From a virus (lineage: Duplodnaviria > Heunggongvirae > Uroviricota > Caudoviricetes): a stretch of DNA of 10,655 nucleotides. The stretch spans positions 1 through 10,655 of IMG/VR virus record IMGVR_UViG_2690316115_000011; one strand, 5' to 3'. The position numbers are program-made. How positions within the stretch are numbered: position 1 is the first letter of the stretch; the number at the start of each line of letters is the position of its first letter. This document shows positions 1 through 3,000 of this stretch, one piece after another.

Positions 1-3000
1 ATTTTCAAGAACCGTTCTGACAGCTTCGGCTTTGAACTCTTTAGAGTAACGTTGGGTTTTTCTGCTCATTATTAGCTCCTTCTGATGCCATTCTATTTCA
101 GGAAGGAGTGTCCGTTAAACTCAGGCTACCTCAGAATGCTTTCCCTACAGATTCAGCCAGGCGACTAAGGTGATAGTTCGTCAGTTTATCCAGTTCATGA
201 TGCGCGGCGCGCACAGCAGTAAGCAGGCTCTGAAGGTAACTGTCCTCTGTGTCCATCTCCATACGGATCACGTTATTGCGTTGTTCTGGTGTGGCATGAT
301 GCCGGTATTTTCCATCTTCATCTTTGCTGAATAAGAAGAGGTGAAGGAAGCGATGAGTAAGGCTCAGAGTGGCGACGGGAATTTCACACTCAGAACAGTC
401 ATCGTCGCTGTCCGGGGATTCGTTTTTCTCCACATCATCCGGAATAGTTCCGTCCGGGTCATCGTTGTCATCGCCAGCAGTTGTGGCATCTTCACCGTTG
501 ATGTTGTCATTGAAGGGTATAGCCATCATGGTGATGCCATCTTCCCCGCCTTTTTCATAGCGGTTGCAGAATTCAGTATCAAACACGCCTTCCGGTGGAA
601 GGTCATTCACGACGGGGAAATTTACGCGAACGGGTTTTTTGAAATCATCCTCGTCGTAGCCTGCATCGTCCATGGCTGCAATGCAGCGGGAAACTGCGAC
701 AGAAAGTTTTCTGGCATCAGCCCAGAAAAAACCGCCTTTGATGCCAAGGCGTTTTCTGACTTTATCGTTTTTTGCTTCGCAGTGTAGTGCAAAAGTCTGT
801 TTATCAGCGCTCATTGTATTTAAACCTCTGGCTGGATTAGAATTAGAGGCCCTTTGTCTGATTTCTCCGAATACGGTGACGCAGGGAGAAATCCGGTAGC
901 CTGCGCTGCCGGATTTTTATTTCAGTGGAAGGTTGCCTGGTTTGCTGTTTTGTGAGTTGTTTTTCCCTTTTCGTGCTGGCATTCAGAGCAGTCGCACTCA
1001 GAATTTTCTCTTGCAAATTCAAGAGCCTGCGCCAGTGTATGGATTTGTTGTGCTCCAATGTTGCTTCTGACGACTTCACATGCAGCATGAATATATGGGC
1101 TTGGTGTTTTGCCATTTAACCCACATGAAACCAAACGACTGTCTTTATATTCGTTATTTCCAACTTCTGTAAGCACTGAAAAAGAAAATACAAAGTCGAT
1201 TTTGTATTCTTTGCATATTTTACTGATGCGTTCTGCAATTTCTTTGAGTTCATTTATTGCATCAGGACTGGTTTCGGAAAATATTTCATTTTGCGCAAGT
1301 TCTTTCATTTTGATTTTTCCGTGATTGATAATTAATGCGGTTTTTATTTCGGCAGATATGGAAGGTGTATTTTATTACTCGTCACAACGACTCTGCTTTT
1401 ACGGGTAAGCCATCGCGCCCGATGAAAACTTTAATCATGCAGTCGGTAATGCATGTTTTTGTTGTGAAGTTACGAATATAGAGTTTTCTCTTTTCAATAT
1501 TGTTTGCTGAAGCGATATATGTCCGACCTTCATGAAGAACATAATCGCCAGGCGTCACGCACTGACGTGGTATTTCATCAGTTCCGAAGTGATGAGCAAT
1601 CATAATTATCTCCATTTTCACAAATGAACTTTGTTGATGCGGTGCCTGGTGCCTCCAGGTGGCGTTAACCAGTTAACAATTAACGCCGGGTCAGGGGACG
1701 ATGACTTTCCGTGACATCCTGTCGGTTTAACTGTTCCGCGTGCGCTGAGCCGCATTCACCGCATCACAAAATTCACTTTAAAAAGGGCGGACATCAGCAA
1801 TCGGCAAACCGATATCCGCCAAGGGTTACACACAGCAATGTTGTTATTCACAACCGGAAGCGCACGGTCGAAGAAATCTAACGACAATCCTTCTATGGGA
1901 AAGAGTCTTCGCCTCGCGCTTTCGTGTAGTACCCTGGCTTTTCAGGGTAATGTCTGTTCAGTAAAGTGAGAGTGCCGGAACTCACCCGTGTCCGGCGCAC
2001 GATCTCCACCTCACCCGTGGAGAACTCCTCAACTACAAACCCCGTAAGGAGAGTGAATTTATGACACAAGAAGAAAAAGTGATGTTTCTGATGCGGCTGG
2101 CTGTCGATACCTACAACACACAATTCAGGGAGAAAGATATACCTCAAAAGGCAGTTCCTGCCGCGGTAGATAAGGGCGGTGCTATTGCCGTATTTTACGA
2201 TGCATTTGAATCATTTTTTGATGAAAAACTCGACGCTGTTAGCGACTTCGGAACATCGAGTAATAAATAACGTTCATTACGGTTCTTAAACAACAATCAG
2301 TGGGCTTGATGTTGTTCTTTTCAAGCTCACTTGCCATCACTTCCATTATTCTTGCGCTTACACGAATTATTTGGTGGCTGTAAGCGACGCAACTATCGCT
2401 GATATTGCTGTTTATTTCTATTACTTCATTTTCACTGGCGGCGCTAAATTTGGATATGCCGTTTCCATTGTCCTGTTTCAGTGCTGTTTCCGCTATCCGG
2501 ATGCGTTCCTGCGTTGCGGAATTTGGGCTAAGTCGATAAACCTGTCTGGCATCTTCCAGAAGCAGGGCGATAATGTGCTTCAGTTCTGTTTCATTCATAG
2601 TTAACTCCGGTAGTTGCAATTTATTAATATCAGGCGGTCAGCTCTTTAAGCTTCTGAACTGCTTTATTCATTTCATCCATACAGTCGATGAATTCGTCCA
2701 GTTTAAGCTGCATTTTTCCGGCGGCCTGAAGGATTTCAAGTTTTAAGGGCGCAAGTTTTTTGTTGAATGCATCATCTTCCTGGCGTTTTTTCTCCGCAAT
2801 TTCGGCGGCTTTCAGCAATTCTTCAGCCTGTTTTCTGAGTATTTCTGGTGAAGGTGAAACTGCTTTGAGGTTATTCATTTCAGGTTCCTGTTGTTGCAGA
2901 ATTAATTTGTTGCATTCTCTGCGTGAGCGTTTCATTGCAGATTCGCACTTCTTGCAATAAATGGCTCTCCCGTCACGCTTGCTGGCATCTGAATAAAAAT

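Follow-up and report, generated by a model that had tools for sequence, protein, structure and literature searches.

Why would a small gene be read against the early-left (pL) operon that surrounds it, and is it a gene at all? The question is raised by a 10,655-nt stretch of DNA from a virus of the Caudoviricetes (IMG/VR record IMGVR_UViG_2690316115_000011, positions 1 to 10,655; hereafter the window), whose content corresponds to a lambdoid prophage's immunity and early-left region and which is 100% identical to E. coli ML35 (NZ_CP025747.1). Here a 69-aa open reading frame (ORF) on the plus strand, called P below, lies head-on among minus-strand genes, and an earlier reading of the sequence (the original prediction) had seen in it a moron or lysogenic-conversion gene that would be expressed while pL is repressed. 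Our analysis points to P as a real gene in an autonomous head-on unit that occupies a slot like that of sieB, an explanation that, taken as a whole, we consider fairly probable. P is already present in the databases as a hypothetical protein (PGAP/RefSeq WP_000189936.1; PHROG 2605); what is new here is the identification of the sieB slot beside a DicF-kil module, the linkage of P to part of its convergent neighbour together with a hairpin, and the swapping of cargos behind a shared 5' element.

Coding evidence for the plus-strand ORF

P extends over positions 2061-2270, from an ATG through 69 codons to a TAA stop at 2268-2270, which bears out the ORF that had been proposed. It is preceded by the Shine-Dalgarno (SD) sequence AAGGAGAG at 2046-2053 (plus strand), 7 nt before the ATG as had been described; the further claim that this was the best SD of the left arm was overstated, because N ranks first at -11.0 kcal/mol and the duplex of AAGGAGAG with the anti-SD second at -9.6 kcal/mol. 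All close classes keep the SD as AGGAG(A/G)G, and it likewise precedes an unrelated ORF of O157. At its other end P overlaps a 119-aa minus-strand ORF over 32 nt (2239-2270), again as had been reported.

Coding constraint was analysed by comparing four lineages in all six frames over the 177 nt of P that carry no overlapping minus-strand ORF. The P frame was the sole frame free of stops in all four lineages, the other five holding one to seven stops in at least three of the four, and its mean pN/pS was the lowest (0.50 vs 0.66-1.50 in the other five frames). For the same part of P, Nei-Gojobori dN/dS was 0.27-0.45, and among distant members pN/pS was 0.28-0.63. In addition, the differences between lineages in codons 1-15 are all synonymous, and the indels found in P (3, 12 and 18 nt) are all multiples of three. 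This was the check by which the original prediction had proposed to judge P, and constraint upstream of 2239, where no minus-strand ORF overlaps, proved to be specific to the plus frame, which refutes a constraint exerted by the minus-strand frame only. As judged from these substitution patterns, P is under frame-specific purifying selection and is very probably a genuine translated gene.

P also belongs to a family. It matches PHROG 2605 over its full length (residues 1-69 on profile positions 1-69 of 69, E 1.5e-45), as do the homologues P0010 and P0015, and a word-indexed search recovered relatives down to 46-49% identity, the homologues as a whole spanning 30% to 99% identity and lengths of 58 to 69 aa. 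A profile search of 1.84 billion representative proteins gave 15 clusters of P (at 50% identity), with lengths of 58-94 aa, most of ~60 aa, that come from Escherichia and Edwardsiella phages. In the family profile a near-invariant N-terminal helix, MT-x-EEKVMFLMRLAV-(D/E)-T-x-N, is joined through a variable linker to a second helix that contains IE..Y.K(F/Y)E..LDKKL. The product is a soluble, acidic protein of 7.8 kDa (pI 4.55) with no transmembrane segment, and AlphaFold2 models it as a pair of helices, residues 3-22 and 32-65, with a low confidence (pLDDT 64). Any specific molecular function for P is doubtful. The protein would most likely act by binding another protein, and the near-invariance of the N-terminal helix MTxEEKVMFLMRLAV suggests that this partner is conserved, whether it is a protein of the host or the M domain of the neighbouring gene, which is inherited with P and described below. 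The lysogen may benefit by phage exclusion or by keeping the toxic kil module under control.

The head-on slot and its putative transcription unit

The features of the window that bear on the position of P are the following, from left to right.

Left of kil, minus strand: the end of recE, then a 128-aa ORF
1382-1603, minus strand: kil (KilR family, PF27398 KilR), a host-killing gene downstream in the pL operon
1589-1783, minus strand: STnc100-like leader in front of kil
1785-1834, minus strand: DicF-like small RNA (sRNA) and terminator, between P and kil (RF00039, 29.2 bits)
1939-1967, plus strand: candidate sigma-70 promoter TTTTCA-N17-TAAAGT (8/12 match)
1974-2060, plus strand: predicted 5' untranslated region (UTR) of P (~85 nt; minimum free energy -33 kcal/mol, z -2.25)
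1974-1996, plus strand: hairpin 1 of the predicted 5' UTR
2004-2022, plus strand: hairpin 2 of the predicted 5' UTR
2061-2270, plus strand: P, 69-aa ORF (PHROG 2605; RefSeq WP_000189936.1, hypothetical)
2239-2598, minus strand: 119-aa hypothetical protein, convergent neighbour of P (PHROG 2982)
Between N and the 119-aa ORF, minus strand: a 238-aa ORF
3347-3730, minus strand: N, 127 aa (Pfam N_peptide, E 2.8e-15)
4228-4989, minus strand: KilA-N/BstA-like gene, 253 aa, between cI and N in the rexAB slot
5021-5734, minus strand: cI
Right of cI, plus strand: cro and cII

The statement that all other genes on the left are on the minus strand holds for every annotated gene left of cI, and P opposes the pL operon as had been claimed. 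Between the 119-aa ORF and kil, a 440-nt stretch is free of minus-strand genes and holds the DicF-like sRNA with its terminator and the STnc100-like leader. Each locus examined has P set against the early-left operon, immediately before a host-killing module when read in the pL direction; this module is KilR in the window and locus L004, DicB for both L010 and L098, Kil of the lambda type in L106 and DUF1482/YdfD in L107. Edwardsiella phage EPP-1 shows the same topology two genes from the repressor; position, orientation and 3' overlap are kept from Escherichia to Edwardsiella phages.

The window-type region was found in 66 of 5,426 complete E. coli genomes (~1%), including the O104:H4 strains of the 2011 outbreak. 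Three phage records out of 50,697 have it too, namely PhiR5_2, Edwardsiella phage EPP-1 and an Stx1c-converting phage, and the DicB-linked type of P is full-length in only 8 genomes. Among otherwise collinear prophages the slot may hold no ORF (Qin), another ORF (O157:H7), sieB (Rac) or a remnant of P (75/02 Stx). Decayed copies were also seen: P carries a nonsense mutation plus a frameshift (strain 23CRST047; in L061, ~1660-1870, a stop at Gln3 with a 1-nt insertion), and a 5' deletion both in Shigella phage 75/02 Stx (L002, 3233-3364), where the last 29 codons are left, and in Shigella phage POCJ13. The convergent neighbour is intact in L061 and L002, and its M domain in POCJ13.

The closest parallel to this arrangement is sieB. 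P shares its slot and orientation: each is a plus-strand gene set against the pL operon, with N to one side and kil to the other. Lambda sieB (plus strand, 34482-35036) abuts the end of N as P meets the 3' end of its neighbour; in Rac, 441 nt separate kilR from sieB, which is on the plus strand and overlaps ydaF by 4 nt, and the gap from kil to P in the window is 439 nt. Since sieB of lambda and Rac shares the slot, the head-on arrangement has a textbook precedent. In P22 the antisense RNA sas derives from the pL transcript. P22 sieB is expressed from the prophage and controlled by sas (PMC7067206, PMC12197685). The likeness is one of position. Homology of P to SieB was considered and rejected: BLASTP of P against Rac SieB gave no alignment, and PF14163, which matches Rac and lambda SieB at ~1e-30, does not match P. 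Furthermore, SieB is a protein of 162-184 aa with hydrophobic segments, the maximum 19-residue hydropathy (Kyte-Doolittle) being 2.19 for Rac SieB vs 0.99 for the 69-aa, soluble and acidic P, and the two-hairpin element present before P has no counterpart upstream of Rac sieB.

Relatives of P show the architecture of an autonomous unit. In six distant loci the homology has a sharp left edge ~72 nt ahead of the ATG, at TTCACC-N16-TG-g-TATCTT, a conserved extended -10 promoter that is followed by a 5' stem-loop and the SD, and in L105-L108 a T-run after the 3' hairpin makes a canonical plus-strand intrinsic terminator. The point where homology starts, together with the hairpin and T-run, indicates that the shared module spans promoter to terminator. 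In the window the better-placed candidate is that at 1939-1967, which is conserved in L004, L064, L010, L098 and O157 and whose CTGnCTTTTCA context resembles the -35 region of the distant promoter; we infer from this resemblance that it is the window equivalent. The predicted start of transcription from it, near 1974, lies at the base of hairpin 1, and in the resulting leader CUCCU at 2025-2029 is predicted to pair with AGGAG of the SD (2047-2051). Hairpins 1 and 2 share the loop motif CTCACCCGTG. The promoter that had been proposed earlier, TTCACC-N16-TTTAAA, did not survive: it is really at 1755-1782, lacks the invariant final T of the -10 element and belongs to the flanking sequence of the DicF-like terminator, whose conservation has other causes.

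The 3' end of the unit was also relocated. A hairpin had been drawn at 2289-2322; it can be folded, yet it is neither the minimum-free-energy structure nor conserved, its apparent conservation being due to the ELEKNNIKPT codons of the neighbour. The conserved structure is instead AGTGGGCTTGA-N11-TCAAGCTCACT at 2299-2331 (plus strand), downstream of the stop of P and inside the codons of the M domain, which is the minimum-free-energy structure past that stop (-15.6 kcal/mol). Across 13 distinct sequences, 92.9% of its cells are paired vs 29-57% in slid controls, four pairs are changed on both sides, and mean stability is -17.8 kcal/mol in the plus sense vs -10.7 in the minus sense, ~7 kcal/mol in favour of the plus strand. 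It is absent from the L103/EPP-1 class. By its conservation and position the hairpin is likely a 3'-end or terminator element of a plus-strand transcript.

The O157:H7 prophage shows a swap of cargo. The same upstream element and SD are followed there by an unrelated plus-strand ORF at the same position:

L111 2537-2770, plus strand: 77-aa ORF of E. coli O157:H7 SS52 (PHROG 10348; WP_000920491.1)

This ORF overlaps a 135-aa minus-strand ORF by 23 nt, and the C-terminus of that neighbour differs. Because the mosaic joint falls at the start codon, the upstream element acts like a 5' expression region common to alternative cargos. A stretch of 37-39 nt that comprises the end of this element and the SD is matched in about 1,000 complete E. 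coli genomes, the 77-aa ORF itself having been inspected in O157:H7 SS52 only.

Taken together, P probably forms a plus-strand transcription unit of its own, set head-on into the pL operon between the DicF-like/kil module and the upstream early genes. The unit would comprise a weak promoter at ~1939-1967, a structured 5' UTR in which CUCCU can mask the SD, the strong SD, 69 codons and a plus-sense hairpin. It would be transcribed while pL is repressed, that is in the lysogen, and upon induction N-modified convergent transcription and antisense pairing would shut P off, as with P22 sieB/sas. Expression specific to the lysogen, argued by analogy, has in our judgement somewhat less than an even chance, and it is from geometry and precedent that we infer a silencing of P by convergent transcription and a lysogenic-conversion phenotype.

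Such a unit invites comparison with the accessory genes of prophages. Loci antisense to lytic genes and with a promoter of their own are typical accessory loci (PMC7067206), and phage morons and prophage accessory loci have been described by Juhala et al. 2000 and Cumby et al. 2012, as these are cited in PMC7067206. P resembles them in its compact unit of putative promoter, ORF and hairpin antisense to lytic genes, with the promoter weak in the window, and in being present, absent or swapped among otherwise collinear prophages. It differs in that its base composition is not distinct from that of its neighbours, that in the window it has neither a U-tract terminator nor a strong promoter, and that it is not cleanly intergenic, since it overlaps and travels with part of the neighbouring gene. 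The moron logic first put forward is partly supported, by the opposition of P to the pL operon, by the architecture of an autonomous unit in relatives, by presence/absence and cargo swapping in the slot and by the sieB precedent; the hairpin and promoter then named are not the relevant ones.

A number of observations weigh against this explanation. At the 5' end, the candidate TTTTCA-N17-TAAAGT is no better than chance (2 such sites vs 1.3 ± 1.3 in shuffles) and was not called by a standard promoter scan. The ~200 nt at 1850-2045 are better conserved than P itself, and hairpins 1 and 2 hardly vary in any close relative, in K-12 Qin or in O157:H7, but this conservation cannot be credited to P because Qin has the element, abutting the ydfC stop codon, without any plus-strand ORF. 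At the 3' end, the tail of the window hairpin is TTGCCATC and contains no U-tract, so that the hairpin is not a canonical intrinsic terminator and plus-sense termination there may be weak. Its strand asymmetry is weak evidence because 5/6 synonymous transitions of the neighbour give plus-sense wobbles anyway, and for the same codon bias G·U wobbles were rejected as strong proof of a plus-sense hairpin. GC content is 41.9% in P, 40.8% in kil, 42.8% in the 119-aa ORF and 41.4% in the 238-aa ORF, which gives no compositional sign of a foreign insert, and P is dispensable, since it is a pseudogene or 5'-deleted in some prophages. Lastly, searches of Pfam, NCBIfam and PADLOC gave no match for P or its neighbours, Foldseek of the P model against BFVD gave no match, the best hit of a profile search of PDB sequences reached only E = 0.28, and a literature search on P found no report of a transcript, transcription start, Ribo-seq or proteomic detection.

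The convergent neighbour and rival explanations

P is always convergent with a minus-strand ORF that ends in the same domain, with a 3' overlap of 23-33 nt. This M domain is formed by the last ~45 aa of the 119-aa protein (2239-2376, minus strand), resembles PHROG 15476 and is homologous in all the convergent neighbours of P, with the consensus (I/L)SS..L..LKSEL.....(I/V)KPTP.NLR.VM.II..SLP. It forms a standalone gene of 64-71 aa in L105, L107 and L108; elsewhere it is fused to differing N-terminal modules in proteins of 119, 201, 158 and 171 aa, of which the 201-aa protein of L010 joins it to PHROG 1363 and the 119-aa protein of the window to another N-terminus. In the phage collection M was found only beside P or a remnant of P. 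In the distant class the LDKKL motif of P and the EFFVE motif of M share the same nucleotides.

This linkage gives the strongest rival to the sieB-like explanation, namely that P and M are a functional convergent pair acting in lytic or early development rather than P being a lysogenic-conversion gene; P could bind or antagonise M, or the overlapping mRNAs could regulate each other. The strict co-occurrence, the existence of M both standalone and on different N-terminal modules, the overlap kept from E. coli to Edwardsiella and the doubly coding LDKKL/EFFVE stretch all speak for such a pair. However, co-inheritance is trivially explained by the physical overlap and by the position of the P hairpin inside M: the arms of the hairpin at 2299-2331 are the S-E-L and K-P-T codons of the neighbour, and M therefore travels with P. 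There is also no obligate co-dependence, as P is decayed in L061, 75/02 Stx and POCJ13, and in L064 M is frameshifted beside an intact P. On this evidence we regard the pair as unlikely. An obligate toxin-antitoxin pair was considered as well and rejected because each partner is found decayed beside an intact one (L061, L002, L064); PADLOC gave no match for the P-M pair.

Alternatively, plus-strand transcription itself could be what matters, a head-on promoter upstream of the DicF-kil module acting by interference or as an antisense insulator against leaky pL read-through into toxic genes in the lysogen, with the peptide secondary. Three unrelated cargos (SieB, the O157 77-aa ORF and P) occupy a head-on slot beside host-killing genes, the upstream element and SD are common to different cargos, and in the pL direction kil, dicB or lambda-Kil invariably follows the slot. 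Nevertheless, the P protein is under frame-specific purifying selection across deep divergence, its N-terminal helix is near-invariant in amino acids while synonymous sites vary, K-12 Qin tolerates dicF-dicB without any cargo, and the promoter is weak in the window, all of which makes a purely transcriptional role quite improbable.

We give a similarly low probability to a combined scheme in which P and M form a convergent, 3'-overlapping switch upstream of DicF-kil and the upstream element with its SD is a reusable expression socket. In the lysogen, transcription of P and its protein would restrain M and read-through into DicF/kil; on induction, collision with pL transcription and antisense pairing would silence P and release M. 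The socket would accept different small cargos, such as P and the O157 77-aa ORF, each with a matching C-terminal tail for the neighbouring gene.

The weakest rival, that P is untranslated and conserved through constraints on the minus-strand pL RNA, for instance because this forms a long structured leader or is processed ahead of DicF and kil, can point to the very strong conservation of the flanking non-coding DNA at 1850-2045 and to the folding of minus strand 1780-2062 (z = -4.1), but is highly improbable, given that the body of P diverges to 30-50% amino-acid identity and yet stays open with its ATG and SD, that its indels keep the frame, that the other five frames have stops and higher pN/pS, and that in O157 the whole ORF is exchanged for another.

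Surroundings of P and biological meaning

The DNA between P and kil has its own affinities. The DicF-like sequence matches RF00039 with 29.2 bits (E 4.8e-4), below the gathering score of 48, and Rfam at gathering thresholds gave no match in the window; the corresponding sequences of close relatives score 44-46 bits, and that of the window can be aligned to K-12 dicF. The window shares with the dicF-dicB region of Qin a conserved structured stretch of ~200 nt, a DicF-like sRNA and its terminator, a leader resembling STnc100 and then a division inhibitor, and differs from it in the toxin (KilR vs DicB), in having a plus-strand ORF where Qin has none, and in the score of its DicF-like sequence. 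The K-12 region belongs to the precursor of DicF, from which RNase III generates a 190-nt species and RNase E the 53-nt DicF (PMC10448788). The two-hairpin element upstream of P may act in the plus-strand mRNA, in the minus-strand DicF precursor or in both. A scan of genome contigs with an 18-mer of hairpin 1 returned mostly chance matches in GC-rich Actinobacteria and five true Escherichia/Shigella loci, none with P. The Pas sRNA described in a preprint was set aside as not relevant to P, because it concerns the Q/lysis region.

Some additional features of the window were noted. Residues 120-237 of the KilA-N protein (4228-4989) match the PADLOC BstA model (E 2.5e-20), which makes this gene a candidate abortive-infection gene. 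The N ORF (3347-3730) is not called by RefSeq in ML35, where only a 69-nt 'regulator' fragment is annotated. Three direct repeats of ~70-90 nt, 89-97% identical, lie at 6534-6602, 6624-6693 and 7367-7459, two upstream of a 358-aa ORF resembling a replication initiator and the third within that ORF; they code for repeated QQPQQPEADWVNP peptides and could belong to an origin or be iteron-like.

These findings leave current concepts unchanged, P adding one uncharacterised member to a known class. The linkage of P to M, with a terminator-like hairpin written into the codons of M, is an example of how overlapping signals shape the boundaries of phage mosaics. In addition, lambda, P22 and Rac carry a gene for exclusion of other phages in the slot of P, which adjoins the DicF sRNA and Kil toxins that affect division of the host. 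If P is indeed expressed from the prophage, it would be a candidate lysogen-fitness or phage-exclusion factor belonging to a new sequence family.

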